Source: an uncultured virus (IMG/VR IMGVR_UViG_3300044858_003318) (taxonomy: Duplodnaviria; Heunggongvirae; Uroviricota; Caudoviricetes). Taken from it: a DNA stretch of 64,000 nt. This document shows, piece after piece, positions 6,894-54,059 of the stretch. Position numbers and translations under genes: made by a program. Position 1 is the stretch's first letter. Every line of letters begins with the position of its first letter. A model generated the notes under the pieces. The model was not told the DNA's origin. It was given only the letters and a program-made list of their open reading frames with translations, and searched no databases. The stretch lies in IMG/VR virus record IMGVR_UViG_3300044858_003318, one strand, 5' to 3'.

Positions 6894-6935
6894 GCGATAG
6901 TTGGTTATATGAGATAAACTCAACTTCCCAATATC

Positions 6936-12823: not shown

Positions 12824-12824
12824 G

Positions 12825-15786: not shown

Positions 15787-15820
15787 TTATCCTTTTATAA
15801 CTTTATTTTAATATAAATAT

Positions 15821-21074: not shown

Positions 21075-21626
21075 TCAGCCTAGTGCATTATAGTTCCAAA
21101 ACATTTCCTTCTCTTTATTAAAAGGAGCACCTACCTGTTGATAATAACAATTCAAACAAAGCATTTGTAAATTTTCTATGCGATGATTGGTTTCATCACC
21201 ATCAATATGATCTAATAGCAACGGTACCGTATCATCAGTAACTCTTCGTTCTGCATATCCACAGCACTGGCATTCTTCTGCCATTATGTTCAATGCCAAC
21301 AACCGATTACGAAGCTTCCATGTTGGATAGTTTGGATACTTGCCTTCTAATATACCATCAATTGTATATCGACCTGCTGCTGCTCGTTGACTGTCTTTAG
21401 TAATACCATGTCCAGCTTGGTTTGTATGCATATCATACAAAGTTTTACCGGTTTCAGAATCCACATACATTTTAGCATATTTTTTGTATGTAGTGAATGA
21501 TATCTTTAAGAAACGAGCTGCTTCGGCATTTGATTTAGTATTAGCTATTGCATATCGAATATCAGACTCTGGCAAATCATATGCCGTACGTCCTTTTCCA
21601 TACACATACTTATACTGCTGAGACAT
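21075..21626 (-). CDS. HNH endonuclease-like protein with N-terminal HTH-like segment
   Basis: CQCC...DHIDGDETNHRIENLQMLCLNC. Confidence 0.8.
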   Translation of the reverse strand: MSQQYKYVYGKGRTAYDLPESDIRYAIANTKSNAEAARFLKISFTTYKKYAKMYVDSETGKTLYDMHTNQAGHGITKDSQRAAAGRYTIDGILEGKYPNYPTWKLRNRLLALNIMAEECQCCGYAERRVTDDTVPLLLDHIDGDETNHRIENLQMLCLNCYYQQVGAPFNKEKEMFWNYNALG

Positions 21627-22668: not shown

Positions 22669-23553
22669 TTAGATATATTTAGCATTCTTATCAGTTGTTA
22701 CATTGTCATACCGAACATATCCAACTCCGGTAGTGTTGCCTACACCTGGTTGTAATTTAACCATATACCATGTTTGACCTTGGTCATCTTTTGAGATTTT
22801 CATGATTTTACCAACTGGATCCGGCCATGTTATTTTGGTTTGAAAATTGTGAATTAATCCGGTATTTACTTCTGGGGACGTACGAACATTTACATAGTCA
22901 GCTGATGTTCGTTTTCTAGGATATACCAGTTTACCTATCAATGATCCTGCCGCAGGATCTTTTGGCATACCTGAGCTCGTTGCAACAGATTTACTTTTAC
23001 TACCAGTTCCTTTTAGTTCAGAAGCATATTTACGAAATGCATCTGCATTAGATTTCATTCGTTTAACTACACCTTTAAATCGGCCTGGATTTAGATAATT
23101 CGGATGATTAAGATATTCATCTGCAACTCTATCCCATTTGCCCTGATTAATCATTTTGCGAGTTACTGGTCCTAGGTCACCTCGATAGATTGCATTTAAT
23201 ATTGCCGTTCGTACATATTTAGGATATGACGCAAATTTAGGAATCAACCTAGCTGCTTTTGCTTCATTGTCTGCAATGCCTTTTGCTAACAACTTTTCAG
23301 CTGCAGCTTTTGATATTTTCATCCCTGGTTTTAACGACGGATATACCGCTGCTGTTGTACCATATCCAATAGTTAGTGTACCAATTATCGTTGCCCCTGG
23401 TTTTGCTGGAACCCTAGGGTTAGCATCATCATATGCTAGATGGTTTCCATTAGCATCAGTTGGTCCAGGACCTTCCCATTGCTTAACCATTTCTTTGAAC
23501 TCATTGTCAAATGCTAGAGATGCTTCTGACAGTATAGATTTTAGATGTATCAT
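22669..23553 (-). CDS. lysozyme (GH24-like) with C-terminal SH3b-like domain and leader motif
   Basis: WEG...YDD...TIGYG catalytic pattern; YVNVRTSP...WY.V...GYV; MIHLKSILSE leader. Confidence 0.8.
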   Translation of the reverse strand: MIHLKSILSEASLAFDNEFKEMVKQWEGPGPTDANGNHLAYDDANPRVPAKPGATIIGTLTIGYGTTAAVYPSLKPGMKISKAAAEKLLAKGIADNEAKAARLIPKFASYPKYVRTAILNAIYRGDLGPVTRKMINQGKWDRVADEYLNHPNYLNPGRFKGVVKRMKSNADAFRKYASELKGTGSKSKSVATSSGMPKDPAAGSLIGKLVYPRKRTSADYVNVRTSPEVNTGLIHNFQTKITWPDPVGKIMKISKDDQGQTWYMVKLQPGVGNTTGVGYVRYDNVTTDKNAKYI

Positions 23554-30782: not shown

Positions 30783-31133
30783 TCACGTTTTCCAAAAGAG
30801 CTGTACTAATATTAGTGCAAATGCTAATAATAAAGATATTGCAGTTTTTGCATTAATTGCCTCATCACGAAAAATATATGTCATTAGTGTGAATATGAAT
30901 ATACCAGCACAAAATGAAATAAAACGTCCGGGCCAAAATAACCCACCGAATCCATACACAACATAACTAGTTGCTTCCATAAACAACCACGTGATAGGAA
31001 CTCCTAGTAACATTAAAGCCCATCGCCATTCTTTTGCCCATGGCCAAATTAATGGACCATTAACTTGTATCCAAACTATAATTTGACCTAAAATAAATAG
31101 TAAAAATGATAATAGTATGTAACGATAATTCAT
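30783..31133 (-). CDS. 4-TM membrane protein (DMT/SMR-like size)
   Basis: 116 aa, four hydrophobic helices. Confidence 0.7.
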   Translation of the reverse strand: MNYRYILLSFLLFILGQIIVWIQVNGPLIWPWAKEWRWALMLLGVPITWLFMEATSYVVYGFGGLFWPGRFISFCAGIFIFTLMTYIFRDEAINAKTAISLLLAFALILVQLFWKT

Positions 31134-31185: not shown

Positions 31186-31602
31186 TTATCGTTCGCCTTT
31201 ATGTGTATCAAATTTATCTAGAATTTGATTCAAAAGGTTTGCTTGAATGAATCCAGCCATGGATGCATTTTTTAATGCACTTAATAATTCAAAAACAATA
31301 AATGGCACCAATATTGTTTCACTTAACCAACCGGTGCCAGGAAATCCTTTTTCCACTAGCAATAACACTGTTAAAATTACAATCCATGTTACTGTGGTTC
31401 GCAATACTTTTAGTGCTTTAAATGTTTGGAAGCCTTCTCGTTTAACGCCAGCAACTATTCCAAAAAACCCGTCGAACAATACCACAGCAATTAATGCCAA
31501 ATATTGTTCGACGTGATCTAAGGTTAGATTGTAAAAATATGTACTAATAAATGTCATGGTTGTTGTTAGTACAAGTGATATTGCTAATGGGATTGATTTC
31601 AT
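31186..31602 (-). CDS. phage holin family protein
   Basis: 3-4 TM; D.FFG...G.K; ELLSALKNA...G motif; translationally coupled to the endolysin. Confidence 0.75.
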   Translation of the reverse strand: MKSIPLAISLVLTTTMTFISTYFYNLTLDHVEQYLALIAVVLFDGFFGIVAGVKREGFQTFKALKVLRTTVTWIVILTVLLLVEKGFPGTGWLSETILVPFIVFELLSALKNASMAGFIQANLLNQILDKFDTHKGER

Positions 31603-32420
31603 TATTTTATATCATTGGATTCAATTAATGTGTATGAAAATTTATTTCCGTTTGCTGCACGAGCTATACGACAAATTGCCATAAACTCTTCGAAGTCTTT
31701 AGAACGTTTAAATACTTGGCATCCTTCTGACCAATTCTCTACAAATGTTGAGTCTGCACCAGCTTTATGAATATTGATTCCAAATACACCTTCTTGAATT
31801 TTATTTTCATCATATGTCATATCCTTGTTCGGATCACGGAATACTTTAACTGCTTTATTTTGTCCTAAGGCTTCATATTTCCCAGCATGTAATCGCATAA
31901 TATGAGAATCAATATATTGTCCTTCTACTAATCGTGCTACACCCGCTTTGTTTCCATATTTCATAACGCCCTTTGTTCCAGGATCTGTTGTTGCTGGCCA
32001 GCAATGGAATTTTTCTTCACCACCAACTGTGTAAGATAATGTGATATGGTCGTCAAACAAATTTGTTACTTTGTGACCTGTGTCGGAATTTCGAGCTCCT
32101 ACAATGTTTAATAGATAATCTTTACCTTCAAACCATTTGTATCCTTTTGCAATAACTGCATTCTTAACTTGCTCTAATGTATATTTAGGAGCAGCAGTTG
32201 TTTTAGAAGCTGGTTTTGCTGCAGTTTTTGATTCTACAACTATTCCCATTTTAGCTAATGTAGCAGGTCCTACTACTCCATCTGCTTTTAAACCATTCTT
32301 AGTTTGCCAAGCTTTTACTGCTTCTTCTGTCTTAGGGCCAAAGTTTCCTACTGGATCTACACCTAATACTACTTGAATTTTCTTTACAACTTCGTTGTTG
32401 TCACCTCTTTTAAGTACCAT
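31602..32420 (-). CDS. endolysin: peptidoglycan-binding domain + L,D-transpeptidase-like catalytic domain
   Basis: G.FGPKTE.AVK.WQ..NGL.ADGVVGPAT; TTDPG...GINIH...WSEGCQV. Confidence 0.85.
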   Translation of the reverse strand: MVLKRGDNNEVVKKIQVVLGVDPVGNFGPKTEEAVKAWQTKNGLKADGVVGPATLAKMGIVVESKTAAKPASKTTAAPKYTLEQVKNAVIAKGYKWFEGKDYLLNIVGARNSDTGHKVTNLFDDHITLSYTVGGEEKFHCWPATTDPGTKGVMKYGNKAGVARLVEGQYIDSHIMRLHAGKYEALGQNKAVKVFRDPNKDMTYDENKIQEGVFGINIHKAGADSTFVENWSEGCQVFKRSKDFEEFMAICRIARAANGNKFSYTLIESNDIK

Positions 32421-32456: not shown

Positions 32457-33572
32457 TTATTTTTTTTCTTTACTGCCTTCTTGTGTAGCATACTTGATAC
32501 CCATGATTGTACCAACTATTGAAAAGGCATTTGTTAATAATACACTAAACATATTACTCCATGTAGAGCCTATTATTTGTGTGTCTTGGTTTGTTATAAT
32601 AGCCATCCAGTATAATGTTGTTGTTACAACTCCTACTCCTACTATAACAGCTAATGCAACTTTAACAATTATTTTTATTAGCTCACTTTGGCTTTTTTTC
32701 ATCATGACATCTAAGTCATTTAGTGCTGCATCTTTTTCTATCTCAATTGCATTCTTAAGCTTTTGTGAGTTATCAAGTTCTACCTGTAAATTTGTTGTTA
32801 AGTCGTCGATTTTCTTCTTATTGTTTACAGCCTCAGTGACATCGGTTGCAATTTTAACTACATCAGTGATATTTCCTTTACTGTCTAAAACAGGATTGTA
32901 AGATGCTTGTAAATAAACAGTAGATCCATCTACTTTTCTTCTTTCAAATATTCCATCAAAATACTTACCTTTTCTTAAACTATCCCAAAACTTAGTATAG
33001 TCATCAGATTTAGAATACTCATAGCTAACAAAAATGCTGTGATGTTTTCCAATGACTTTAGCTTTTTCATTAGCTTTATAACCCATGGTTTCTAAGAATA
33101 TAGAATTTGCATCTGTTATAAATCCATCAATGTTAAAACTAATAAGAGCTGTACTTCTGTTGATGGCATCTATCTGTTTCTTGCTATTGACAATTGCACT
33201 AATGTCAGTAGCAACTTTCATTATCTTGGTAATCTTGTTGTCTTCATCAAAAATAGGGTTATAAGTTGCTTGAAGATTGATAAGACTTCCATCTTTTCTT
33301 CGTCTTTCAAACTCACCTTGATAATACTTACCACTTCTTAAGATATCCCAAAACTTTTCATACTCATATGACTTTGCGTAATCTTCACATACAAACATGC
33401 TATGGTGTTTACCGATAAGATCTTCGTGTTTACCTATACCATAACCCATTGCTTCCAAAAAAATGTCATTAACGCCTAATATGATACCATTAAGATCGAA
33501 ATAAATAAGAGCATTACTCCTATTAATTGCTTCTATCCTGCTTAATAACTCTTCTTTTGATAGGTTTTTCAT
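32457..33572 (-). CDS. tandem PAS-PAS sensor fused to coiled coil and two C-terminal TM helices
   Basis: two copies of AINRS.ALI.F..G.I...N.IFLE.MGY...IGKHHS.FV...FW..LR.G.Y..G.FERR..DGS...LQA.YNP...K.ATD. Confidence 0.88.
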   Translation of the reverse strand: MKNLSKEELLSRIEAINRSNALIYFDLNGIILGVNDIFLEAMGYGIGKHEDLIGKHHSMFVCEDYAKSYEYEKFWDILRSGKYYQGEFERRRKDGSLINLQATYNPIFDEDNKITKIMKVATDISAIVNSKKQIDAINRSTALISFNIDGFITDANSIFLETMGYKANEKAKVIGKHHSIFVSYEYSKSDDYTKFWDSLRKGKYFDGIFERRKVDGSTVYLQASYNPVLDSKGNITDVVKIATDVTEAVNNKKKIDDLTTNLQVELDNSQKLKNAIEIEKDAALNDLDVMMKKSQSELIKIIVKVALAVIVGVGVVTTTLYWMAIITNQDTQIIGSTWSNMFSVLLTNAFSIVGTIMGIKYATQEGSKEKK

Positions 33573-33625: not shown

Positions 33626-33886
33626 TTAACCTAGTTCTTCTTCGTTATTATTTTGATTGTTGTTATTTTTACCTGCAAATTTTTCTAAACCTGCAATACC
33701 CAAACTACCTAAAGTAACAATAACAAATGAATTGTAAATGTATTCGTTAAGTTTCAACTCATTACCAAAGTAACCAGTTACTAAATCAACTATCATTGCC
33801 AATGTCATTACTGCGAAAGACATAAATCCAATGATTGTTTTTTCATTGTAATCGTTTGAGTTTTTAAAAATTTCATTAAACCTCAT
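33626..33886 (-). CDS. small 2-TM holin-like membrane protein
   Basis: 86 aa, 2 TM, polar tail; first gene after class-II promoter at 33948-33955. Confidence 0.6.
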   Translation of the reverse strand: MRFNEIFKNSNDYNEKTIIGFMSFAVMTLAMIVDLVTGYFGNELKLNEYIYNSFVIVTLGSLGIAGLEKFAGKNNNNQNNNEEELG

Positions 33887-33958: not shown

Positions 33959-35101
33959 TTAGATTATATTAATAAGATTTTTTTCGTATGTTTCTAATGA
34001 ATATACAGATATTTTGAGATTGCCTAATTGAAAGTCACCAATTTCACCTGAATCCTGTATAATAGATGCTAATTGTTGAATATACATGAAATCCTGGTTT
34101 GTTAATTGTAGTTTATCAAATTCTACTACAATATCATTTTCACCATGCGGATCATTGTAGCCGGTATGAAGTACTCGTTTTGTTAGATCGAATTTAGTAT
34201 TCGGTTGTTCTCGATCAATGTAATGAGTTGTTATAACCTGCATATTATCTTCAATATATATTCTATCACACCACGGTTCTAATAGTTCTAATACATCTGA
34301 TGTGCAATTTTTTACTATGAATGCAATGTTATATTTTGGAGCTTCGGATCTACTTCCCCATTTTCTAACGTAGTTTCGATTGGATGTCAATTCTATTTGT
34401 TGAGTTCTGGTTTGATATTCTTCTGAAAATCTAGATGTCTTACTTACAAAATGATAACATATCGCATCCAATGCCGTAAAACATTTCATTCCTAACATTT
34501 TCCAACGACAAATTAAATCATCATCTTCACAAAACATTGGATTGAATAAATTATCCATACCTCCAATTTCTAACAACTTGATTCTAGGCATACACATAAA
34601 AAACGTAATACCAGATTCGGTTTTATCAGCATATTGTTTTTGTTTGATTTGTACAAACTCATATAAAGCATCTTTATCGAACGCCTCTATAGATGTACCT
34701 AAATCATATATCAATTTACCAGGACGTTCATGATCTGCGAATATAGGCGGCTCTATTGTGGTATATGACACTATATTTTCAGAGTTTACATGTTTTTCTA
34801 AATTTTCAATGAATCCCGGGGCTAAAACGATATCGTTATGCAAATATGCTACATAATCTTTAGTTGCTAATTCAGCAGCTTTATTAAACGTATCGGAAAA
34901 TGTTTTAGATTCATCCGAATAAAAATACTTAACATTATTATCCGTTAATGTTTCTAACCATTCGTGAGTCCCATCTGTTGATCCGTAACTTACAAAACAT
35001 AATTCTGTATCTGGATAAAGTTCTCGAGTTGTTTCATAAAAATGTTTGTTGTAGTCTAAATTATTCTTTAATCCTACTAATAATGATATGTTATTTTTCA
35101 T
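33959..35101 (-). CDS. glycosyltransferase family 2
   Basis: GSTDGT, LHND, CEDDD, HFVS motifs. Confidence 0.88.
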   Translation of the reverse strand: MKNNISLLVGLKNNLDYNKHFYETTRELYPDTELCFVSYGSTDGTHEWLETLTDNNVKYFYSDESKTFSDTFNKAAELATKDYVAYLHNDIVLAPGFIENLEKHVNSENIVSYTTIEPPIFADHERPGKLIYDLGTSIEAFDKDALYEFVQIKQKQYADKTESGITFFMCMPRIKLLEIGGMDNLFNPMFCEDDDLICRWKMLGMKCFTALDAICYHFVSKTSRFSEEYQTRTQQIELTSNRNYVRKWGSRSEAPKYNIAFIVKNCTSDVLELLEPWCDRIYIEDNMQVITTHYIDREQPNTKFDLTKRVLHTGYNDPHGENDIVVEFDKLQLTNQDFMYIQQLASIIQDSGEIGDFQLGNLKISVYSLETYEKNLINII

Positions 35102-35997
35102 AATTCTTGTATTCTTTTTTGTATGTAAAAATCAATATTTTGATTAAAATTAGTTCGTTGTTCTGATACATCAGTCTTAACGATATTATTTCTATAATAA
35201 CTAGAAAATTCTTTTCCAACTAACGGTCCGGTTCCATATTCAAATATAATTTGATTATCTAGTCGATATTGTTGAAAATCATATCCATGTTGTTTGGCAA
35301 TTGTACTAACTACAAGTCCATAATAATCCCATCCTCCATACCCAACCCAATCTTCTTGAACTGGTGCTAATTTTTCGTAATATGATTTACTATATAAATC
35401 GAACCATCCTGCCCATTTTTCTTGATTAATTGGTGTTAATTTAACCGGATCTGATGTTGTTTTAATAAAATAATCTACATCAAATATATCGGTGGTGTGT
35501 TCCCAACCATAATGCGGGCCAATTGCAAATTTGGGATGCGTTAATATTTCCCAACTTTCATCCCACATTCTACATATTTGCGGAGTAATTACGAAATATT
35601 CATTTTTTATTGTAGTCGCCGCTTGTATGATATATTCTAATAAATGTTCATGAAAATACATATCTGGACAAATTGTTATATAATAATCTACCGTTTCATG
35701 CATAGCAGATTTTTGTAAATCCAAATGTCCGTATAAAATATCTCCTTCAATAATTTTTGGATTATGAATATAATCATTCAATAAAATAGAAATATTTTCA
35801 TACTTTTGTATAAAAAAATCTTTTGGAAGTTTTGTTTGTTCCCAATCGATTAGTTTGTCAGATAAATTTAAAACGGAATCAATAATTATTGTATGTTCAT
35901 TTGATAAAAAATACTTAGATTTTTTTAATTGTATAAATGAAAGTAATGCATAGTCAATTTCCCATGGCATTATATGATACATTATTTTTATATTCAT
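35098..35997 (-). CDS. putative GT-A fold glycosyltransferase
   Basis: ICPD DxD-like motif, GYGGWD; cluster context. Confidence 0.55.
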   Translation of the reverse strand: MNIKIMYHIMPWEIDYALLSFIQLKKSKYFLSNEHTIIIDSVLNLSDKLIDWEQTKLPKDFFIQKYENISILLNDYIHNPKIIEGDILYGHLDLQKSAMHETVDYYITICPDMYFHEHLLEYIIQAATTIKNEYFVITPQICRMWDESWEILTHPKFAIGPHYGWEHTTDIFDVDYFIKTTSDPVKLTPINQEKWAGWFDLYSKSYYEKLAPVQEDWVGYGGWDYYGLVVSTIAKQHGYDFQQYRLDNQIIFEYGTGPLVGKEFSSYYRNNIVKTDVSEQRTNFNQNIDFYIQKRIQEL

Positions 35998-36764
35998 AGC
36001 ATTTCTTTTAACTTATTATACGTTTCTTCTATTCCGCGTTTTAATCCAATAAAATTTACATCTAAAGGATAATATTGACCTACATAGCCAGATATATTAT
36101 TTCCTACTGATATCGGAACTTCATATGTATCTAAAGTATTAATAATTTTAGCAATATTATAAAGATATAATTTCAGACCTGAATATATACAATCTAAAGT
36201 TTTTGGTAAATTATTATTATTAATATAATATTCTATTAAAGTAACCAAATCTTTCATATAAATAAAATCCATTAATTTATTTTCGTATATTTGGATCGTT
36301 TCTTTGTTAATATAACGTTTAATATTTGATTTAATAAATCTGGTATCTAATTCATTTTCATCGAACACTCCAAATATTCTTAAATTATAAAAATTTGGTT
36401 TATCGTTAATCGATTGACTAATAATAAATTTGCTTAAACCGTACGGAGTCGAATGAGTTAGTTCAGCACCAGATCCTAAATTTATAAATTTATTATAATT
36501 AGTTTGGTGATTTAAAAGATTATAGTATAATTTTATATTTTGATCTATAATTGAACTGTCTTCTAGTTTGTTTCTGTGACCGCCAACGATTGCAGTATGA
36601 ATTACTACATCAAAATATTTTCCGGAAAACCAATTATTTGTAGCTATCGAATCGGTTAAATCGAAATCATCTCTTCCAATGCAAGTAACCTCATATTTAG
36701 AATGTAAATATGAATACAAACTTCGTCCTATGTAACCATTTTTACCTGTAATTAATATTTTCAT
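35994..36764 (-). CDS. NAD-dependent epimerase/reductase (YerF-like position)
   Basis: TGKNGYIG, GSGAE, YGLSK. Confidence 0.85.
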   Translation of the reverse strand: MKILITGKNGYIGRSLYSYLHSKYEVTCIGRDDFDLTDSIATNNWFSGKYFDVVIHTAIVGGHRNKLEDSSIIDQNIKLYYNLLNHQTNYNKFINLGSGAELTHSTPYGLSKFIISQSINDKPNFYNLRIFGVFDENELDTRFIKSNIKRYINKETIQIYENKLMDFIYMKDLVTLIEYYINNNNLPKTLDCIYSGLKLYLYNIAKIINTLDTYEVPISVGNNISGYVGQYYPLDVNFIGLKRGIEETYNKLKEML

Positions 36765-37759
36765 TTATTCTTCAGCTTTTGTGCTACTTCTAAAATAAGA
36801 TCTTCTTGTCCTGCAACTAATTTTCTATTTCCTAACTCAAAAATAAGAGATGAATATTCAATTCCATATAATTTAGATGCTTTAATTATCGGCTTCTCAA
36901 ATCCGGAAAATAATTTTGTTAATCCAGTTAAAACATTAATGGGCGTGGATACGGGATGTGTTGGAACTAAATAATCCATTACACGATCTGCTTCTTTAAT
37001 CGTTTCTTCAAAACTAATTCCGGTAGAAAAATTACTACGTTCAAACACAGGTAATAATAATTCTAAAGGTGCATTACCAGCTCCAGCCCCAAATCCTCGA
37101 ATACACGCATCAATCAATTCAGCTCCATTTTCGGCAGCTACTAATGAATTAGCTACAGCACATCCTAAATTATTATGCGCATGAAACCCAACTTTAATAT
37201 TTAATTGTGATTTTAACAAACTAATACGTTCTTTTACGTCAGCAGGTAAATAAGTGCCTGTCGAATCCATAATGATAACAGCTTGGGCGCCATATTCTTC
37301 CATGATCTTAGCTTGTTCTGCTAACTCAGCTGGTGTGATTAAAGCAGACATCATTAATACCCCATATACCGTTTTACCGGTCTTTGCTAAATATTCTATG
37401 TGGGATTTTGATAAAGTTGCTTCAGTACAATGTGTTGCGACACGAAATACATCGACTCCATAATCGATAGCTAACATTGCGTCATCAATAGTAGATAAGC
37501 CTGGAATCGTATGAACTCCTAATTTTGATGATTTAAGATTTTTTCTAGCAATAGTTAACATTTCTTTGTCGGTATTAGGAGATTTTCCTATCAATAACGA
37601 CGATGCTGCTAAACCATTACCGTGCCCTACTTCTACAACAGGTATTCCAGCTTTATCCGCAAATTGACAATATCTTTCGATGCTGTCTAAACTAATAGTA
37701 TGCTTAACGCTATGATTTCCGTCTCTAAGACTAGAATCCGTAATGATTATATTTTTCAT
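36761..37759 (-). CDS. dmpG: 4-hydroxy-2-oxovalerate aldolase
   Basis: D.SLRDGNH, EVGHG.GL, ATHCTEA, GFHAHNNLG, GAGAGN, VAGQED. Confidence 0.93.
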   Translation of the reverse strand: MKNIIITDSSLRDGNHSVKHTISLDSIERYCQFADKAGIPVVEVGHGNGLAASSLLIGKSPNTDKEMLTIARKNLKSSKLGVHTIPGLSTIDDAMLAIDYGVDVFRVATHCTEATLSKSHIEYLAKTGKTVYGVLMMSALITPAELAEQAKIMEEYGAQAVIIMDSTGTYLPADVKERISLLKSQLNIKVGFHAHNNLGCAVANSLVAAENGAELIDACIRGFGAGAGNAPLELLLPVFERSNFSTGISFEETIKEADRVMDYLVPTHPVSTPINVLTGLTKLFSGFEKPIIKASKLYGIEYSSLIFELGNRKLVAGQEDLILEVAQKLKNK

Positions 37760-37761
37760 AG

Positions 37762-38619
37762 TTAATGTTTTAATTTTTCTGTAATCTTAATTGCCGCACA
37801 GTTAATAATATCTAAGTTACCGGCATATTCTGGCAGATACTCTCCAGTTCCCTTTACCCTAATACTTAATACAACTACTCCGTTTTCATTTAGTGTAGGC
37901 GGTAATACTAGTTCGTAATATGGTATATAAGTTTTTAATTCTTCTATTTTTTCTGCAATCTTTTCTGTTAAATTATTAAAATCAATTTCTTTAGTTTTAA
38001 TAAAAATAGTAGTTTGCATATCAACGCATGGTTCTGCGGGATTCAAATTAAGAATAACTTTAGTTTTTCTACATCCGGTGAACTTAGTTATTGCATTTTT
38101 TGTAGTTTTAATGTAATTGTCAACATTGATTCTCGTAGCCATTCCGGCACTTTTAGATGCAATTTGAGACACAATTTCTACGTATTCTAATCCTTTACAA
38201 TGTTTTGATATTAAATGTAACATTGGCATTGATGCTTGTCCCCCACACGTAATCATGTTAACATTATCATCCGTTAATATAATATCTCCATTAACATCAG
38301 GTACGCACATATCCCCAACTTTTGCTGGAGTTAAATCAATTACTTTGATTCCTTGTTCTTTAAAGATTTTAGCATGTTCTTTAGCATCTGTAGCATTAGT
38401 ACAATCATATACCACTTCGCAACAATTAGGATTATTTTTGAAATAATCAATTCCTTGATCTGATATTTTAATTCCTTTTGATTTAGCAATACTCATCGTG
38501 CCAGAATCCAATCTTCTTCCTACGAATGCTACTACATCAATAAAGTCAGTTTTAATTGACTTTAACATGAGATCGGTACCGATATTACCTGTACCTAAAA
38601 TTGCTACTTTTATTTTCAT
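37762..38619 (-). CDS. dmpF: acetaldehyde dehydrogenase (acylating)
   Basis: GTGNIGTDL, DLTPA, NMITCGGQA, YLP.YAGNLDI. Confidence 0.93.
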   Translation of the reverse strand: MKIKVAILGTGNIGTDLMLKSIKTDFIDVVAFVGRRLDSGTMSIAKSKGIKISDQGIDYFKNNPNCCEVVYDCTNATDAKEHAKIFKEQGIKVIDLTPAKVGDMCVPDVNGDIILTDDNVNMITCGGQASMPMLHLISKHCKGLEYVEIVSQIASKSAGMATRINVDNYIKTTKNAITKFTGCRKTKVILNLNPAEPCVDMQTTIFIKTKEIDFNNLTEKIAEKIEELKTYIPYYELVLPPTLNENGVVVLSIRVKGTGEYLPEYAGNLDIINCAAIKITEKLKH

Positions 38620-40367
38620 CTCGTTATACTATTACTTCGTTCATTAATTCCGGAAACCATCGCCGCTTTAATATCTTCTAAAGGCAACAATGGCGACATT
38701 TCTTCTAGTAATCCAGCTTGAATTGTATTGTCATTATTTTTGATACCTTTTACTTTAGGTATAAATTCTTGATTCGGATCCATAAATACTTCTAAAATAC
38801 TTTGATTGGTAGCTGCTAAAAAATCATCAACATTATCTAATGTATAATAATCATATCCAAATGCATCTGCTACTTTTTTATATTCTGGAAGTTCTACGCC
38901 TGTTGATTTATCAACGCAAGTTTTCGTTCCACCAAATAACATGTTTTGCGTATGCTTGATCATTAAGTAGCCATCATTGTTAAAGATAACAATTTTAACT
39001 GGCAAATTATGAGTTTTAATTGTTTGAAGTTCTTGTAAATTCATCATCATACCTCCATCACAATTCAAACATAATACTGACTTATTACCAAATCCAGCGC
39101 CAACCGCCGCGGCAAGACCATATCCCATTTCGCCTAAACCTAATGATGTAAACATCTTTTGATTTGGTTTGATATTAAATCCATAAAAGCCACTTAATAA
39201 AGCAGTTCCCATGTCCGTAACAATTGTATAGTTATCGGGTACTTTGTTTGAGAACCAATCTATAAATGTATATGAATTAGTAGGATCAACTAAATGTTCA
39301 GGCATTACTCTAGGATATTTGTTTCGAATGTTATCGCAATATAATTTCCAATCCGTAGTGTCTACTTTAATTAAATCAACTGAAATTAAATCATATAAGA
39401 TGTTTCCGATATCTTCATTAATTGGTAATCCATCAAATTTATTTGTTTCTGTTGAGTCTATATCAATATGAACTATTGTTGCATTAGGTGCAAAATCTTT
39501 TCTAGAATATCCTGTTTGTAATAGAGATAATCTACTTCCCATTACAATTAATAAATCGCAATTTTGTACTATAAAATTGGATGAACGTTGTCCTTGAACA
39601 CCTGAACGACCGTAGTTATTTGAATGAGTTTCTTCAAGTAAATCTACTGCTGACCAAGTTAATATTGTGGGTAAATTATGTTGCTCAATAAATTGTTTAA
39701 ATAATTTTTCTGATTGAGATAATTTAACTCCATGTCCTCCAATTACAACTGGTCTTTTACTTTGGTTAAGTAAATCTATTAAGTCTAATGTTTTTGGACT
39801 TAACATTGGAGTGTTTAATTTTTTAAATGGGGTGATAGGTTGTTCTTCAACCATTTGTCCTTGAATATCAAATGGTATTTCTAAAAATACAGGACCTGGT
39901 CTATTGATTTGTGTTGTTTCAAATGCCTTTTCAAATGTTTCGTATACATTTTCTTTAGTGATTCGAACAGACATTTTTGTATGTTTTGAAAATGTATCTA
40001 CTGAATCATATCCTTGAATACCGTACATTCTCATATCTGAATATTCATTAATATAATATGATTGTTCTTGTCCCGATATAATAATTCCAGGAATTGAATC
40101 TGCCCAATTGGATAAAATACCAGTAAATGAATTCGAAGATCCTCCGCCGGCTGTAACTAGTGATGCAGCCAGTTTTCCAGTAGATCTATAATATGCTCCC
40201 ATTGCCATAACGGCAGCTTGTTCATGATGTACAGCGATTAATTTAATATTAGATTTGTTATTTATGGAATTGTATATATGAGAATTAGCAGACCCGATAA
40301 TACCAAATACAACTTCGATATTATTCTTTTCTAAAAATTCTGCTATAACATCACTAACTTTTACCAT
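38616..40367 (-). CDS. ThDP-dependent carboligase (YerE/acetolactate-synthase-like)
   Basis: HHEQAA.MA, MGYGL, CDGGMMMNLQEL...NNDGY ThDP motif. Confidence 0.9.
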   Translation of the reverse strand: MVKVSDVIAEFLEKNNIEVVFGIIGSANSHIYNSINNKSNIKLIAVHHEQAAVMAMGAYYRSTGKLAASLVTAGGGSSNSFTGILSNWADSIPGIIISGQEQSYYINEYSDMRMYGIQGYDSVDTFSKHTKMSVRITKENVYETFEKAFETTQINRPGPVFLEIPFDIQGQMVEEQPITPFKKLNTPMLSPKTLDLIDLLNQSKRPVVIGGHGVKLSQSEKLFKQFIEQHNLPTILTWSAVDLLEETHSNNYGRSGVQGQRSSNFIVQNCDLLIVMGSRLSLLQTGYSRKDFAPNATIVHIDIDSTETNKFDGLPINEDIGNILYDLISVDLIKVDTTDWKLYCDNIRNKYPRVMPEHLVDPTNSYTFIDWFSNKVPDNYTIVTDMGTALLSGFYGFNIKPNQKMFTSLGLGEMGYGLAAAVGAGFGNKSVLCLNCDGGMMMNLQELQTIKTHNLPVKIVIFNNDGYLMIKHTQNMLFGGTKTCVDKSTGVELPEYKKVADAFGYDYYTLDNVDDFLAATNQSILEVFMDPNQEFIPKVKGIKNNDNTIQAGLLEEMSPLLPLEDIKAAMVSGINERSNSITR

Positions 40368-41311
40368 ATAAATTTATTTCTATAATATTTTACAATTTCT
40401 TTTAACTCAACATCAAATTGTTTCCTCGGTTCCCAGCCTAGAGATCTTAGTTTAGAATCATTTAATGAATATCTAACATCCATACCTGGCCTATTATATG
40501 ATAAATCAATATATTTTTCAATATCATTTATATCAATATTATTTATAATAAGAAGTTTTTTAACAGTTTCCAAGTTGCTTTGTTCAAACCCACCACATAT
40601 ATTAAAAATTTCATTTTCGACGCCAGATTCTATGATTGTAATTATAGAATTTGCAGTATCTTGTGCATGTAGCCAATTTCTAACGGGAGTACCACCATTA
40701 TGTAATGGTATTTTTTTTCCCAATGTTAATAATTTGCACGCTTTAGGAATTAGTTTTTCTACATACTGACCAATGCCGTAATTATTTGTAGGACGAACAA
40801 TTACATACGGTACATTATGAGTACGTTGCCAAGCTAATATTAACATATCGGCTGCAGCTTTTGTTGCTGAATAAGGATTAGAAGGTTTTAATAGATGTTC
40901 TTCTGTATGTTCGCCAGATTCAATATCTCCATATACTTCGTCTGTACTAAAATGTAATAATATTGGTTTTTTAGAATGTTCCCCTCGATGATTCTTTATA
41001 AGTTCTAATAAATTATGAACACCATCGATATTTGATTTAATGAATTCAGAACTGCTAACAATTGAATTTCCAACATGTGTTTCTGCTGCAGTATTAATCA
41101 CATAATCACAATCATATAAAAATTTTAAATCATTGATATCGCAATGCACAAAAGAAAAATTTGGATATATTTTAAATTCATTTAATACATCTTTATTTGC
41201 AGCATATGTAATTTTATCAACGCCTTTAACATACCAACCTTTTTCTAAACACGTACGTGTCACATAGGATCCTATAAATCCTAAACATCCGGTCACATAA
41301 ACTACTTTCAT
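40361..41311 (-). CDS. rfbB: dTDP-glucose 4,6-dehydratase-like SDR
   Basis: GFIGS, AAETHV, STDEVYG, PSNPYSATK, NNYG..Q..EKLIP. Confidence 0.85.
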   Translation of the reverse strand: MKVVYVTGCLGFIGSYVTRTCLEKGWYVKGVDKITYAANKDVLNEFKIYPNFSFVHCDINDLKFLYDCDYVINTAAETHVGNSIVSSSEFIKSNIDGVHNLLELIKNHRGEHSKKPILLHFSTDEVYGDIESGEHTEEHLLKPSNPYSATKAAADMLILAWQRTHNVPYVIVRPTNNYGIGQYVEKLIPKACKLLTLGKKIPLHNGGTPVRNWLHAQDTANSIITIIESGVENEIFNICGGFEQSNLETVKKLLIINNIDINDIEKYIDLSYNRPGMDVRYSLNDSKLRSLGWEPRKQFDVELKEIVKYYRNKFIW

Positions 41312-42141
41312 ACAAATCTTTCTTTACATCGTTCTACAAACTTATTAACTTGTTTAATCATATCTTCTTCAGCTATTTCAATTTCTTTATATAACAATGG
41401 CAATGTTTCTATTGCTCTGTCGATATCGGTTTCGCCGAAAGCTACCCCATATGGATTAAACCTAGATCCCATTAACCATTCTTCTTTTGTTTTTGTTCCG
41501 TCTGGGATTACTATACTTATACAACCACACATTGCTGCTTGTATAGATAAAAAAGTATAATTATCATAACAATAAAATTTTTTAGTTGCATTAAATATAC
41601 TTGATATATTTGATAAATTTCCAGCATCATGAAATTTAATTTCAATCGAGTCAGCTGGGTGTACTAATGATTTTGGATTTCCTTTTCGTATAGAATAGCA
41701 ACTTCCGTTTCTAGATACATTTTTATTTTGAAATATATTCGAATGAAATTCTGTTATCATTAATTGATTTTCGCGCGATCCTAATTCGTCAGTATAATAA
41801 TAATCCATATACCAATATATTAAATCCGTATCTGAATATGTATTATAATCTGTTTGATTTGCTGGGCCTAATATCCATCTTACCACATTTTTTGAATTCA
41901 ATGGATTATAATGAATTCCTTCCGGATATATTACAATTGCATCAGAAATGTTATCAAATATTTCTTGAGTTATTAACGGCGTATTGTAATCGGAACATAC
42001 ATTAAATGTATCTCGTACATGGATTGGCATTAAATAACAAGGATAACCAATTTGGTTTAGTAAATGACATAATTTATGCATTACTTTGATTCCGCCAACA
42101 CCCGGATCATAATCATATGTGTAAATTACAAAAGGTTTCAT
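41308..42141 (-). CDS. putative glycosyltransferase (WavQ-like)
   Basis: GGIKVMHKLCH, IYPE, VVRW, QAAMCGC. Confidence 0.6.
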   Translation of the reverse strand: MKPFVIYTYDYDPGVGGIKVMHKLCHLLNQIGYPCYLMPIHVRDTFNVCSDYNTPLITQEIFDNISDAIVIYPEGIHYNPLNSKNVVRWILGPANQTDYNTYSDTDLIYWYMDYYYTDELGSRENQLMITEFHSNIFQNKNVSRNGSCYSIRKGNPKSLVHPADSIEIKFHDAGNLSNISSIFNATKKFYCYDNYTFLSIQAAMCGCISIVIPDGTKTKEEWLMGSRFNPYGVAFGETDIDRAIETLPLLYKEIEIAEEDMIKQVNKFVERCKERFV

Positions 42142-42884
42142 ACTAAATTGTGCGTATTTTCATTTAAAAACCAATAAACATTATCAGAATATCGTTCTTC
42201 TCCAATACAATGCATAAAATCTATTTGATTTGGTAATTCAATAATTCTTTTTTTGTCTAATGCATGTCCTATAGCGGCTGGGGCTGATAAATTTGCGATT
42301 AACATGTTACATGAATTAATAGAAGTAAACCATTCATCTAAAGTTGTTACCTTGTAAAATTCAACTAAATGTTTATACGGAAATTCATTATAATCATTAA
42401 TGGTAGACGAAATAAATAATACGTTGTCTTTACCATAATGATCAATTAATTGTTCATATGGAAAATCTGGATTACGCATTACATTAGCTTTACGTTGTAT
42501 TAATATTTTGTTTTGTAAAATGGTATCGAGTTTATTATACGTTAACCATTTATAGTCGCCATTTATCGTAAATTTAAACATGTTTTGATAAATATTTGAC
42601 CAACACGTTTGATATAATAGTTCTGAGTCAATATATCGTCCTAAATCAATATATTCCGCCGGAACTTCATGTTTAACGTAATTATCATATATTCCGAAAC
42701 TTTTAATATATGGCTGTTGCATAATTATATCATACAACTCTTGATATGTATTTTCAATTCCAAATTCCCATCCTATGTCGTACATGTATAAATCAGCCGG
42801 CTCATTATGAAGTTCGCATAAATTTTTTACAGCAAATAATGAATGAACAAAATCACCTAATTTGCCTCCCATTAAAAACTTCAT
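42138..42884 (-). CDS. putative GT9-like glycosyltransferase
   Basis: GKLGD N-terminus; IANLSAPAAIGHAL. Confidence 0.55.
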   Translation of the reverse strand: MKFLMGGKLGDFVHSLFAVKNLCELHNEPADLYMYDIGWEFGIENTYQELYDIIMQQPYIKSFGIYDNYVKHEVPAEYIDLGRYIDSELLYQTCWSNIYQNMFKFTINGDYKWLTYNKLDTILQNKILIQRKANVMRNPDFPYEQLIDHYGKDNVLFISSTINDYNEFPYKHLVEFYKVTTLDEWFTSINSCNMLIANLSAPAAIGHALDKKRIIELPNQIDFMHCIGEERYSDNVYWFLNENTHNLV

Positions 42885-43231
42885 AATTTTATCTCAGTAT
42901 ATTCAGTTTCGAAAAATTTTTCTTGTATTGCTATTTTTTTTAAATACCGGTCGTAATTTGCTTTAGCAGTTATAGTAGATAATTCAGATTCATGTGCTCT
43001 GTCGACTAATTCAAACACTAATGCATTGGTATTTCGTAACATTTCATATTCGATGCTAGTTTTTATTTGATTAAATTTATCGATTCCTATTTGATTTATT
43101 ATTTCATCACTTAATAACTGATATGAAGTGTTTAATTTTTTATTGACAATGCCGGTACTGTTTTCTAATTTTACTTCATAAATTGATAGTAAATCAAATA
43201 CATACGATTCATCTAAACTAATCTTTAACAT
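42881..43231 (-). CDS. helical hypothetical protein common in glycan clusters
   Basis: D.LSI.EVK...N.DR...K..I...E.K. Confidence 0.6.
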   Translation of the reverse strand: MLKISLDESYVFDLLSIYEVKLENSTGIVNKKLNTSYQLLSDEIINQIGIDKFNQIKTSIEYEMLRNTNALVFELVDRAHESELSTITAKANYDRYLKKIAIQEKFFETEYTEIKL

Positions 43232-43237
43232 ATAACG

Positions 43238-43858
43238 TTATTTATTTTTAATATTTTCTATAATATGAAGTCCAGTGCATTTTTCAAAGTAATTATTCGA
43301 TATAAATTCATTTGAAAAATATTTTGGATTAATCCACCAATCTTCGAAGTAATTAGTATCATCCCATAATCCTAAACTACCATTTGGTGCTTTAACATCG
43401 TCGCATAATCGAATATATCCTTTTGATGATAAAATATCATATGATTTTGTTTTAGACTCATTGCCGCCAGCATAAAAATCATGTTCAAATGTCATTATTT
43501 TAAATTCATACGAATCAAATGGAAAATTTTCTAATCCAACGATTGATGTTGGATCGATATCTAATGATATGTAATCAATTACGGTTGGCACTTCATAAAA
43601 ATTAAAAATATCTCGTAATTCCGTTTGAGGTATAAGAACAGTTAATACATCCGAATTTATACTTACATTACGACGATTTGTTGCTGATGCTGGGTCTCCG
43701 TCAATACATACGCCTTTCCAACCAGCTTCTTCTAGAAGCAATGTATTACTATTGATTCCAGTGTGATCAAATCCGGCGCCAATATCTACAAAAAACCCGG
43801 CGTTCCCAATAAGTTTTAGTGCAAATTGATCTTGGTATACTTGTGAATATGTTTTCAT
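43238..43858 (-). CDS. FkbM-like SAM methyltransferase
   Basis: YSQ..QD, FFVDIGA, SNT.LLE..GWKG, IDYISLD, EHD, EDWW. Confidence 0.8.
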   Translation of the reverse strand: MKTYSQVYQDQFALKLIGNAGFFVDIGAGFDHTGINSNTLLLEEAGWKGVCIDGDPASATNRRNVSINSDVLTVLIPQTELRDIFNFYEVPTVIDYISLDIDPTSIVGLENFPFDSYEFKIMTFEHDFYAGGNESKTKSYDILSSKGYIRLCDDVKAPNGSLGLWDDTNYFEDWWINPKYFSNEFISNNYFEKCTGLHIIENIKNK

Positions 43859-44775
43859 GCTGTTACGAATTCTATTAAACGTTTAAATGTATCAATTAAA
43901 TTTTCCTGAGACCATTCTTTCCGCAATTTTTCTACATAGTTAGTTGTTTTATTAAATTCTAATATTTCTGGTAATGTATGTAATGCCATATCTATATTAG
44001 GATCGTACACCGGATTAAACATACCTACATTGGTAATTGCTAATGGCGTATTAGTAGATATTACATAATCAGGAACTCCAGAAATGTCGCGGCCATATCG
44101 ATATGCAAATGCCATTAAATCATTGTTATAACAAAAATCTAAAATTTCTTCATTTGAAAGAAACTCAGTAGTAATATTTAATTTAATTCCAGGTTTTAAC
44201 AGTACCGATCTCATTCTTTCAATATCTGCATTTTGACCGATACCGTCATTATCGCCATAATATGCTCTAGTAATATGAATATTAATTTGTGCATTTTCAA
44301 ATTGATCGTTTACTAATTTTACTAAGTCATCAAAACCTTTACGTTCTCCAGCAAACCCAAATGAGCCAATATGTACAACATCGTGTTTTGGTTTAGGTTT
44401 ACTAAGATCGTATTTATATAATGGTCTCGTAAAACCATTTTTTAATGGATCTTGATCAATATAATAATCAAACGTAGCAGTATGAAAATCTGGCGTATGC
44501 ATTATTGTTACTGTATTTAAATCCGGAAAATTATTTTTTACATGTTGAAGAAGTCCATGATTTAACCAACCATATGGCCCAGTAGGACCACCTTCAATCC
44601 AATTAAACAACAATACGTTAACTTGAGATAAATTTAACTGATTAAAATCTTGCAACGTTTCTATTTCAAAATACTCAATATCCAAATCGCAATGTTGCAG
44701 GGTATCCCAGATACGTAACCCGTATTGATACACCCCGCAATTTTTTTGTTTACTATTTATGTAGTATATTTTCAT
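43855..44775 (-). CDS. putative GT-B glycosyltransferase
   Basis: CGVYQYG, GSFGF...KGF, ISG..D. Confidence 0.65.
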   Translation of the reverse strand: MKIYYINSKQKNCGVYQYGLRIWDTLQHCDLDIEYFEIETLQDFNQLNLSQVNVLLFNWIEGGPTGPYGWLNHGLLQHVKNNFPDLNTVTIMHTPDFHTATFDYYIDQDPLKNGFTRPLYKYDLSKPKPKHDVVHIGSFGFAGERKGFDDLVKLVNDQFENAQINIHITRAYYGDNDGIGQNADIERMRSVLLKPGIKLNITTEFLSNEEILDFCYNNDLMAFAYRYGRDISGVPDYVISTNTPLAITNVGMFNPVYDPNIDMALHTLPEILEFNKTTNYVEKLRKEWSQENLIDTFKRLIEFVTA

Positions 44776-46007
44776 TATTTTCCAATTATCTCAAACTTAG
44801 GACATGGAACGATAAATTTACCACCATTTGACAAATATTCATCTTCTCTTTGTACAAATTCAGATATAAAATGCCACGGAAGTACTAACATATAATCTGG
44901 CTTCATTGCTCTAACTTCTTCTTCCGATAAAATAGGAATATTAGTTCCAATTGTTTTTAATCCAAATTTATATGGGGAACGTTCTGCAATTGCATCTATC
45001 ATTGTATGATCCAATCCAAACCATTGTAATAATGTATTTCCTTTTGTCGATGCGCCATATCCGCAAATTACTTTACCTTTAGCTTTTTCTTGTTTAATAA
45101 AGTTTACGGTTTGTTCTTTAAGTTCTTCAATATCCGACTGAAACTTTTTCCATATATTTAAATCATTCATATTATAGAATGTAGTTTCATATTCTAGTAA
45201 CGAATCTACTCTAAATTTACATACATCTCTTAATGGACTAGTACCAAATGATGTAACGTCAGCTGTTTCTTTTTGTACATAAACTCGGAAACTACCTCCA
45301 TTAACATCATTTAAACTGCAGTCGACTATTTTTAATCCGTGACTCTCAAATAATTTTTTAAATGAACCAATTGAATGATAATATGCGTGTTCGTGACAAA
45401 TATTATCAAATGCCAATTGTTTAATCATTAATGGAGTATATGACAATTGTAATACCCATATTCCATTATCATCTAATATTTTACAAACATCATTAATAAA
45501 AGGATGCGGATCTAATAGATCGTAAAACATAGCAATCGTCGTTATAACTTTGACTTTTTTATCGCCATACCCCGTACGTTGATATGCGTCGTAACTAAAA
45601 TAATCTTGTACAATCGTAGCTACTTTAGATGATTCGTTAACAAAAGTATCATCTGCAGGATCGATACCTATTTTACTATAAGTATCAGGTACTTGCTTTA
45701 ATAAAGTTCCATCATTACATGCAATATCTAACCATATGTCACCTGATTGATGTTTTACTCGAGATGTTATTTCATCTACAATGTTTCCTAATTCTTTAGT
45801 CATAGTAGCATTAATTCCGGAACGATACCAATACTTACCCCACATCGTTTCATTTGGTGGCATTCCCGTTAATCTAGCAGCGCCAATTTCAGTGTTTAAT
45901 ACTAAATCTAAACTATATTTTTCTCGGCCGGTATAGTCGGATTCTGATTTAATAAAATCCGAAACATAATGTTCGCCTAAATTTACAACTTTGATGTTAT
46001 TTTCCAT
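44775..46007 (-). CDS. NDP-sugar C-methyltransferase
   Basis: DIACNDGTLL, FDNICHEH, NGGSFR, GYGASTKGNTLL, LPWHF. Confidence 0.88.
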   Translation of the reverse strand: MENNIKVVNLGEHYVSDFIKSESDYTGREKYSLDLVLNTEIGAARLTGMPPNETMWGKYWYRSGINATMTKELGNIVDEITSRVKHQSGDIWLDIACNDGTLLKQVPDTYSKIGIDPADDTFVNESSKVATIVQDYFSYDAYQRTGYGDKKVKVITTIAMFYDLLDPHPFINDVCKILDDNGIWVLQLSYTPLMIKQLAFDNICHEHAYYHSIGSFKKLFESHGLKIVDCSLNDVNGGSFRVYVQKETADVTSFGTSPLRDVCKFRVDSLLEYETTFYNMNDLNIWKKFQSDIEELKEQTVNFIKQEKAKGKVICGYGASTKGNTLLQWFGLDHTMIDAIAERSPYKFGLKTIGTNIPILSEEEVRAMKPDYMLVLPWHFISEFVQREDEYLSNGGKFIVPCPKFEIIGK

Positions 46008-46011
46008 ATAT

Positions 46012-49018: not shown

Positions 49019-49041
49019 AATATATAATACGTTATTTTAAA

Positions 49042-54016: not shown

Positions 54017-54059
54017 ATATTTCCTAATTTTAATATAAATATAATCAAAAAAAAAAATA

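Follow-up and report, generated by a model that had tools for sequence, protein, structure and literature searches.

The stretch of DNA analyzed here, referred to as the window, comprises 64,000 nucleotides from an uncultured virus of the Caudoviricetes (IMG/VR record IMGVR_UViG_3300044858_003318). All long open reading frames (ORFs) of the window are located on the minus strand. One of them, at positions 32457..33572, encodes a protein of 371 amino acids (aa) in which two PAS domains are joined by a coiled coil to a C-terminal hairpin of two transmembrane (TM) helices. The gene and its parts are as follows.

32457..33572, minus strand: whole gene, 371 aa, ATG start; PAS-PAS, coiled-coil linker and two-helix membrane hairpin
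33198..33536, minus strand: PAS domain 1 (PAS1), approximately aa 13-125, ending in a D-I-S/T junction motif; PAS_3 at 33-120, PAS_9 at 26-125, strands and helices of a PAS fold in the AlphaFold2 model
32826..33176, minus strand: PAS domain 2 (PAS2), approximately aa 133-249, 54% identical to PAS1; PAS_4 at 142-249, BLASTP
32682..32825, minus strand: coiled-coil linker, aa 250-297, terminating in the juxtamembrane motif NDLDvmmKKsQsELI; first part of the AlphaFold2 helix 251-327
32592..32681, minus strand: transmembrane helix 1 (TM1), aa 298-327; hydropathy peak of 2.63 at 298-316, continuous with the linker helix
32487..32591, minus strand: outer loop DTQIIGSTWSN and transmembrane helix 2 (TM2), aa 328-362, with a GxxxG motif; hydropathy at 341-359, family alignments
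32457..32486, minus strand: charged C-terminal tail, aa 363-371, and stop codon; read from the sequence

Pfam searches with the 371-aa protein revealed two PAS stretches (PAS_3, E 3.1e-25; PAS_9, 8.1e-21; PAS, 4.1e-14; PAS_4, 3.9e-10). The PAS_3 score of 88.7 bits, reached over two stretches, exceeds the cut-off of 25.6, and TIGR00229 was matched with an E value of 6.7e-29. At E <= 0.01 only PAS families were obtained from Pfam, and none of HATPase, HisKA, MCPsignal (PF00015) and GGDEF was among them. Between PAS1 and PAS2, 62 of 114 residues are identical (54%, BLASTP E 4e-48). A hydropathy scan displayed TM-like segments at residues 298-316 and 341-359. In the AlphaFold2 model, which has a mean predicted local distance difference test score (pLDDT) of 64.1 with values of 75-84 in the tail blocks, two PAS folds are followed by a single unbroken helix (251-327) made up of linker and TM1, a three-residue turn and a further helix (331-365). 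Foldseek searches with the whole-protein model matched tandem-PAS structures only, starting from E 1.3e-16. A first-pass annotation made from the sequence alone had described two near-duplicate PAS domains, a coiled coil and two TM helices in the absence of a kinase, methyl-accepting chemotaxis protein (MCP) or GGDEF domain, and this architecture was corroborated by Pfam, BLASTP, hydropathy and AlphaFold2. An identity as MCP was rejected, as there is no MCP signaling domain; the name 'methyl-accepting chemotaxis protein' used by the source (Joint Genome Institute, JGI) reflects the PAS pair alone. The protein is not a sensor histidine kinase either, since it contains neither DHp/HisKA nor HATPase_c, both of which are present in a separate kinase of its relatives, and the lack of a GGDEF domain at the same Pfam threshold rules out a GGDEF protein.

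A copy of the gene with 100% identity is present in the nearest record (G001), at least 120 full-length homologues of 367-379 aa share 86-92% identity with its product, and 209 PAS-PAS relatives were confirmed in viral contigs by tblastn. When the window gene was compared with 38 ungapped relatives (74-94% identity), the ratio of nonsynonymous to synonymous substitution rates (dN/dS) was 0.081 for the whole gene. These results refute a chance ORF, a pseudogene or an assembly chimera, the probability of which is practically nil. Individual parts of the gene differ in constraint, with dN/dS values of 0.08-0.09 for the PAS domains, 0.104 for TM1 and 0.014 for loop and TM2. Loop and TM2 are the most constrained part of the protein and nearly invariant across the representatives of the family described below, which argues that the hairpin is more than a plain anchor.

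Searches with the tail alone (the last 124 residues) revealed 99 cluster representatives at E <= 0.001 and 72 at E <= 1e-10. Most of the matched proteins are 140-260 aa long and carry the match at their C-terminus. From 37 representatives that were read and 27 that were aligned we derived a canonical build, which consists of a conserved N-terminal domain (N-domain) of approximately 75 aa, a coiled coil of variable length, the juxtamembrane motif DLDxLQKKtQfELIg, TM1, a loop, TM2 and a charged end. The loop is short (DTxIIGsTWSN), and the nearly invariant TM2 (FGILLTNsFSIIGTIMGVKYA) contains a GxxxG motif. A profile of the 27 canonical members gave a single match in G001 (E 4.1e-46, profile positions 63-193). 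With its juxtamembrane motif, TM1, conserved loop and TM2 at the C-terminus, the window protein belongs to this hairpin family; the canonical N-domain is absent and the PAS-PAS pair stands in its place. Other inputs on the common tail are a single PAS domain (P0252, P0243), a GAF domain (P0249) and a C2H2-like finger (P0241). The first-pass annotation had proposed to search for homologues of the two-helix tail without PAS, and such proteins, which are canonical and carry the other N-domain, make up 134 of the 204 distinct tail proteins. PAS-less tails among close relatives were discarded as truncated gene calls: of 13 read from 1921 shorter matches, 11 still include the last part of PAS2 and the other 2 begin in the linker. 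The single PAS domain of P0243 (251 aa) is PAS1-like in its N-terminal and PAS2-like in its C-terminal half, as if the repeats had recombined, so that natural forms vary in the number of PAS domains.

No Pfam, NCBIfam or PADLOC identity was found for the hairpin family, and a weak match (E 0.0011) led to phrog_1544, a family of unknown function. A profile search of the PDB with the hairpin gave nothing below E 0.14, a BFVD search retrieved one uncharacterized family member only, and the ESM Atlas contained only viral hypothetical clusters for the family. Among cultured phages neither a canonical member nor the receiver introduced below had a match. As judged from these searches, the hairpin is the defining module of an uncharacterized family restricted to viruses.

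The predicted structure of a canonical protein (pLDDT 91.6) consists of a small helical N-domain, a single helix (37-185) that continues into TM1, a turn and TM2. N-domain and juxtamembrane motif lie 21-85 aa apart, a distance that equals 4 modulo 7 in 91/95 canonical proteins. In 163 of the 169 distinct fused proteins, 41 aa separate the D-I/V-T/S junction of the PAS domain from the beginning of the tail profile, and the spacing is 34 aa in one independent single-PAS form; five values of 162 in this linker-distance set stem from a motif pattern that missed the second PAS domain. Stalk lengths differ by whole heptads. Insertions and deletions of this size keep the angular phase between the input and the membrane helices, as would be expected if a signal travels through the coiled coil. 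The same heptad rule is known for the linkers of PAS kinases.

The nearest long relatives of the PAS pair are bacterial multi-PAS MCPs and GGDEF/EAL proteins with 39-47% identity, and the PAS domains of the phage kinases described below are 30-44% identical to it. Among solved PAS chains, MmoS (3ewk; PAS1, E 6.5e-10), Aer (8dik; PAS2, E 7e-7) and NifL (2gj3) are nearest, with E values ranging to 6.5e-4. The BdlA- or MCP-type origin that had been suggested for the PAS domains is reasonable in view of these similarities. BdlA-type receptors are PAS sensors of this type, and the PAS domains of MmoS, Aer and NifL bind flavin adenine dinucleotide. The tryptophan of an FW motif in the window protein aligns with flavin PAS chains, and the other contact motifs of such chains are not evident; we treat a redox or flavin signal as a lead only. 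The relationship to bacterial proteins and the JGI name of the homologues would both fit a protein in which the hairpin is a mere anchor and the PAS pair, acquired from a bacterial PAS-MCP, acts as a tethered decoy or binding protein that soaks up a metabolite or disturbs host signaling. This is very improbable given that loop and TM2 are the most conserved part of the protein, that the majority of the distinct tail proteins carry the hairpin without PAS and that the linker length is phase-locked.

The strongest evidence for a signal-controlled tail, missed in the first-pass annotation, is the membership of the hairpin in a relay of kinase and receiver. We scored 310 loci with 204 distinct tail proteins (among them 134 canonical, 57 PAS-PAS, 7 PAS and 3 GAF forms) with local profiles. 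Two sets of loci comprised 80 canonical ones kept from 571 confirmed stretches and 80 PAS-PAS ones kept from 209 confirmed stretches. The following example illustrates the canonical arrangement.

L077, 4216-6623: canonical relay of histidine kinase, receiver and hairpin protein

The receiver of the L077 type is a stand-alone protein of 145 aa without an output domain, and therefore must act on a protein. In the set of 80 canonical loci a receiver was present within 4 kb in 79, the exception having 58 nt upstream, and a kinase core in 74. Counted over distinct canonical proteins and within 5 kb, a receiver accompanied 129/134 and a kinase 123/134. In contrast, receiver and kinase were each found in 0/67 of the sensor-fused forms (57 PAS-PAS, 7 PAS and 3 GAF) within the same distance, and neither a receiver nor a kinase core was present in any of the 80 PAS-PAS loci. 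The difference persisted at loci with flanks of at least 4 kb on both sides (canonical: receiver 71/72, kinase 70/72; fused: 0/32 for both). Our prediction, made beforehand, that GAF- and PAS-tail loci would be devoid of kinase and receiver as well held when those loci were scored. Furthermore, G001, which is 95% complete, contains neither a receiver nor a kinase core and has one hairpin-family member only.

The DD, phospho-acceptor D, S and K positions of the receiver are invariant in 54 distinct sequences, and the H, N, G1 and G2 boxes of the kinase are conserved in 61 sequences; to judge from these residues, the relay seems to be active. Two size classes of kinases were distinguished, approximately 300 aa without and 415 aa with a PAS domain, and GAF was found in the neighborhood of some loci. 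Kinase sensors use PAS and, in some cases, GAF, i.e. the domains that are fused to the hairpin elsewhere. Among loci L004-L083 and L167-L316 the kinase sensor parts are 32-92% and the receivers 77-98% identical to those of L077. The kinase-receiver-hairpin trio also occurs on contigs of 294-430 kb (L206, L215, L178), where it lies amid replication genes and genes of unknown function and is not adjoined by a recognizable endolysin. Since the fused forms lack both kinase and receiver, the window gene would be the one-piece counterpart of the relay, and we are highly confident that its product is a fused sensor-output version of this three-gene phage system. Replacement of the relay by a fusion would in turn make the hairpin the signal-controlled output.

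The gene for the PAS-hairpin protein is embedded in a lysis cassette with the following members.

33626..33886, minus strand: g86, small membrane protein of 86 aa with a charged C-terminus, candidate holin or partner; hydropathy
31602..32420, minus strand: endolysin; PG_binding_1 E 1e-13, C-terminal domain phrog_3000 1.3e-31, several endolysin PHROGs
31186..31602, minus strand: holin of the Phage_holin_4_1 family; E 3.9e-7, 30.6 bits against a cut-off of 22.2, phrog_199 holin
30783..31133, minus strand: g116, multi-TM protein of 116 aa; hydropathy, gene order of relatives
33626-33886 (window, minus strand), 8072-8314 (L168), 6774-7004 (L282) and 2627-2860 (L077): members of the g86 family

The cassette genes, all on the minus strand, overlap or are separated by gaps of 36-72 nt. 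The earlier placement of the gene between a small membrane protein and the endolysin-holin pair was correct. Of the two TM helices ascribed to the small protein, hydropathy of g86 displays one as a clear TM-like segment (18-36), and the second is plausible but below the threshold. No Pfam or PHROG family matched g86. Members of its family are small membrane proteins sharing a C-terminal EKF/IxGK motif and a charged tail. The window holin shares 59.7% identity with the protein annotated as holin in Flavobacterium phage vB_FspM_immuto (immuto). A homologue of g116 directly follows the canonical hairpin gene in L071, L077, L078 and L079. The complete gene order in L077 is glycosyltransferase, g86-like protein, endolysin, holin, a 66-aa membrane protein, a 428-aa TM-PAS histidine kinase, the 145-aa receiver, the canonical hairpin protein and a g116-like protein. 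A second lysin-like protein (22669-23553, minus strand, 294 aa) with a phrog_7 endolysin domain (E 1e-10) is encoded far from the cassette and may be a virion-associated lysin.

A single class-II promoter upstream of the cassette, as assumed in the first-pass annotation, was not confirmed, since neither a promoter scan nor a search for recurring motifs supported it. The sigma-70-type scan, whose scope does not extend to Bacteroidota-type promoters, predicted 17 sites compared with 30.4 in shuffled sequences. A recurring upstream motif of the window, which is found exactly at 54027-54043 and 61389-61405 and with one mismatch at 15805-15821 (minus strand), had no match upstream of 33886 even when up to 3 mismatches were allowed. 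Two recurrent AT-rich upstream motifs resemble classes of phage promoters, namely TATATTTATATTAAAAT following a T-run and TTCTTATATTTAAAGTATAAAA. Such AT-rich motifs also precede the starts at 19128, 17848 and 1100, and neither of them was found upstream of the lysis cassette. In two metatranscriptome libraries only contigs of 42-202 nt covered parts of the cassette; DNA carry-over is possible, so that they establish neither transcription nor an operon.

In 74 of the 80 PAS-PAS loci g86, an endolysin or a holin was located within 4 kb of the gene, in 25 different local gene orders. At loci with at least 4 kb of flank on each side, a g86-family gene or a holin or endolysin of the window type was found within 4 kb of 29/32 fused and 49/72 canonical forms. 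Random genomic positions of the homologues, named in the first-pass annotation as an outcome that would speak against a lysis function, were thus not observed for the fused forms. A search with the g86 profile placed a member of this family within 300 nt of 43/57 PAS-PAS, 6/7 PAS, 2/3 GAF and 15/134 canonical forms, and the g86 family is the most constant neighbor of the sensor-fused forms. Moreover, distant fused forms abut non-homologous endolysins, either of the GH19 type (L168, L275, L169, L116) or of the M15 type (L282, L108). The gene order in L168 is GAF-tail protein, g86-like protein, 80-aa TM protein and GH19 endolysin, and in L282 a g86-like gene is followed by the PAS-tail gene and an M15 endolysin gene. 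Because it adjoins the hairpin gene and the endolysin across three endolysin types, the g86-type protein may be the actual holin or the partner of the hairpin.

Among 44 full-flank loci without window-type lysis genes, 13 were sampled (5 fused and 8 canonical). Another endolysin was present within approximately 1.5 kb in 4 of the 5 fused loci (L275, L169, L116, L108). Immuto encodes its related holin and an endolysin but no hairpin-family member; the module is therefore accessory, as expected of a timing regulator. Overall, linkage to lysis genes is strong for the fused and moderate for the canonical forms, with all counts inflated by shared descent.

Gene neighborhood and architecture together point to the PAS-hairpin protein as a signal-gated regulator of lysis timing, and we put the probability of this function at roughly 55%. 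Small membrane proteins, holins and endolysins are encoded alongside it, and for this reason control over the time of lysis is its most likely output. According to the model that we propose, the two cytoplasmic PAS domains would read a signal inside the infected cell, and the 41-residue coiled-coil linker with its fixed heptad phase would pass this signal as a continuous helix into the two-helix membrane hairpin, which would serve as the output. Canonical members would be driven by the phage histidine kinase and its stand-alone receiver, and in the window protein the sensor would act directly through the fusion. The hairpin would then alter lysis timing by holding back or triggering a holin or by changing membrane permeability itself. 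Its prime candidate partner is g86, followed by the Phage_holin_4_1 holin. The nature of the signal, the identity of the partner and the direction of the shift in lysis time are our inference.

Several findings weigh against a role in lysis timing. Pfam revealed no holin family in the window protein, and comparison of the hairpin with the neighboring holin family by hhalign gave a probability of 1.6%, i.e. the two are unrelated. At 371 aa the protein is far above the typical size of holins. A Foldseek search of the PDB with the hairpin returned no structural relative at E <= 0.001. The NSG-type motif that we take to mark the flavin sites of NifL and MmoS is not evident in either PAS domain of the window protein. 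Related phages share synteny by descent, and locus counts are consequently not independent events. No endolysin was seen near one of the five sampled fused loci (L131). Of the canonical loci with full flanks, 23/72 are without any of the three marker genes, and among the eight sampled canonical loci another endolysin was found in one (L188), the rest lying among replication, nucleotide or unknown genes.

The holin comparisons bear on the first-pass proposal of a sensor-gated holin or antiholin with a holin-like tail. Part of this proposal stands, namely a sensor without a classical output domain that is encoded in a genuine lysis cassette, and a tail related to holins by descent does not. In the comparison of 27 hairpin-family members with holin families, only 2 touched Phage_holin_3_6, with an E value of 0.061. 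Judged by the traits of holins as a functional class, the window protein gives a mixed picture: TM helices, a charged C-terminus and a cassette position are present, and small size is not.

In one alternative, the hairpin itself forms holes. Assembled into oligomers by its coiled coil as a sensor-gated pore, i.e. a second holin or viroporin, it would depolarize the membrane and thereby trigger the cassette holin without binding it in the manner of an antiholin. Holins are known to fire upon loss of membrane potential. A nearly invariant TM2 with small and polar residues and a GxxxG motif would suit a pore, as would the long stalk helix that runs straight into TM1, the short conserved outer loop, the basic C-terminus and the position of the gene within the lysis cassette. 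We nevertheless consider a hole-forming hairpin unlikely, because it resembles no holin family and is of atypical size, and because phages with the same type of holin do without the hairpin family.

The canonical loci remote from lysis genes would be explained if the protein were a signal-controlled membrane effector outside lysis, acting in superinfection exclusion, in control of host respiration, transport or motility, or in membrane remodeling, and lying near lysis genes merely through clustering of membrane genes. Both the 23 full-flank canonical forms without marker genes nearby and the 7 of 8 sampled loci amid replication, metabolic or unknown genes are in line with this idea, and the extreme conservation of loop and TM2 would also suit a conserved host target. 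It is hard, however, to explain without a role in lysis why endolysins of three unrelated types and genes of the g86 type accompany the fused forms in many different arrangements, which makes an effector of this kind rather unlikely.

For the regulator of lysis timing favored here, a wider claim can be formulated. The hairpin may represent a new class of signaling output, a phage-only membrane pore or holin switch that is driven by a coiled coil, opened or closed by conformational signals from a relay or from fused PAS and GAF sensors in the cytoplasm, and used by hundreds of large aquatic phages to read the redox or energy state of the infected cell and to time lysis by it. We advance this claim tentatively and regard it as doubtful in its full extent.

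The source of the window is a T4-like phage with a genome of approximately 160 kb; the nearest record, G001, has 159,977 bp. The window encodes a family-B DNA polymerase, whose best match among cultured phages is that of Microcystis phage Mel-JY01 (44.5%). Judged by the holin, the closest cultured relative is immuto, a Flavobacterium myophage of 160 kb. In view of the relatives of the phage, including the immuto holin, a host from the Bacteroidota is likely. Among cultured phages the 10-kb cassette region had no near match at the DNA level, and the whole protein matched 3 records only, by its PAS parts only. The best of the cultured records (L002, MT836939.1) is a GC-rich entry of 8.2 kb filed as 'Bacteriophage sp.', which encodes a 675-aa PAS-PAS-MCP, a GGDEF/EAL protein and a resolvase-like fragment. 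Because of its base composition and these genes, it looks bacterial or plasmid-borne rather than phage-derived.

Directly upstream of the cassette lies an 18-kb sugar-modification block (33959-51797, minus strand) with glycosyltransferases, nucleotide-sugar epimerases and an aminotransferase, which is very large for a phage. The thymidylate synthase ORF (11633-12886, minus strand) has 417 aa, its match spans profile positions 20-307 of 335, and a second PHROG matches in two stretches. The length of the ORF relative to the profile and the split match suggest an insertion of approximately 100 aa, a candidate intein or inserted domain. An HNH endonuclease is encoded at 21075-21626. A phage GroEL (14161-15780, minus strand; phrog_5725, E 6e-178) shares up to 62-63% identity with GroEL of Bacteroides phages and bacteria, and immuto also encodes GroES and GroEL close to its lysis genes.

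The timing of lysis sets burst size and phage fitness. The well-studied example of sensed timing is the lysis inhibition of T-even phages and ICP1, in which superinfection is perceived from the periplasm. If our reading is true, many large environmental phages would read the interior of the host through PAS and GAF domains or through a private two-component system, and would convey the result straight to the membrane. This would add a regulatory layer to phage ecology, e.g. in the timing of lysis in blooms of Flavobacteria-type hosts. In the one-piece form the whole decision circuit would be contained in a single protein of 371 aa. Relay and fusion would constitute a 'Rosetta stone' pair for signal transfer from a coiled coil to membrane helices, and the fused form might offer synthetic biology a compact part for sensor-gated lysis or permeabilization.

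The PAS domains of the window protein resemble those of Aer, MmoS, NifL and BdlA-type proteins in subtype, in the tandem-PAS fold and in the D-I-T-type junction into a coiled coil. Unlike PAS-MCPs, the protein has no MCP domain, HAMP domain or kinase, and its output is a hairpin found only in phages. VqmA-Phi of vibriophage VP882 is reportedly a phage PAS sensor as well, a soluble DNA-binding transcription factor acting on the switch between lysogeny and lysis. It would share with the window protein the use of a phage PAS sensor to time host killing, whereas the latter is membrane-bound and has no DNA-binding domain. CorA-type channels combine a cytoplasmic domain, a long stalk helix leading into TM1, a short conserved loop, TM2 and a short basic C-terminus. 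The hairpin protein resembles them in architecture only; neither sequence nor fold matches, and the loop is devoid of a GMN motif.

Our literature search found no description of a PAS-holin fusion, of a phage kinase-receiver-lysis module or of the hairpin family, in agreement with the first-pass annotation, which knew of no described example of this architecture. A term search of PMC7029224 gave no mention of kinase, two-component or holin. The nearest functional analogues are T4 lysis inhibition, in which the holin T is paired with the antiholin RI (PMC11413866), and lysis inhibition by TeaA and ArrA of ICP1 (PMC7182436), where an accessory membrane protein of a large lytic myophage sets lysis time according to a sensed condition. 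RI of T4 is periplasmic, responds to superinfection and binds to the periplasmic domain of the holin. The window protein, by contrast, has cytoplasmic PAS domains, its relatives use GAF or a phospho-relay, and there is no sequence relation. Nearest in logic is the LytSR system of staphylococci, a two-component system tied to the holin-like proteins LrgAB and CidAB (PMC4830213) and thereby to holin/antiholin-like proteins and membrane state. LytR is a DNA-binding transcriptional regulator of bacteria, while the phage receiver has no output domain and the window form has no relay. None of the T4 RI/T, ICP1 ArrA/TeaA and LytSR systems has sequence, topology or a cytoplasmic sensor in common with the window protein.

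The canonical relay exemplified by L077 has the same juxtamembrane motif, TM1, loop, TM2 and continuous stalk helix as the window form and, in close relatives, the same neighborhood of g86, endolysin, holin and g116. The window form differs from it in that PAS-PAS replaces the N-domain of approximately 75 aa, the stalk is shorter, and the genome contains no kinase or receiver.

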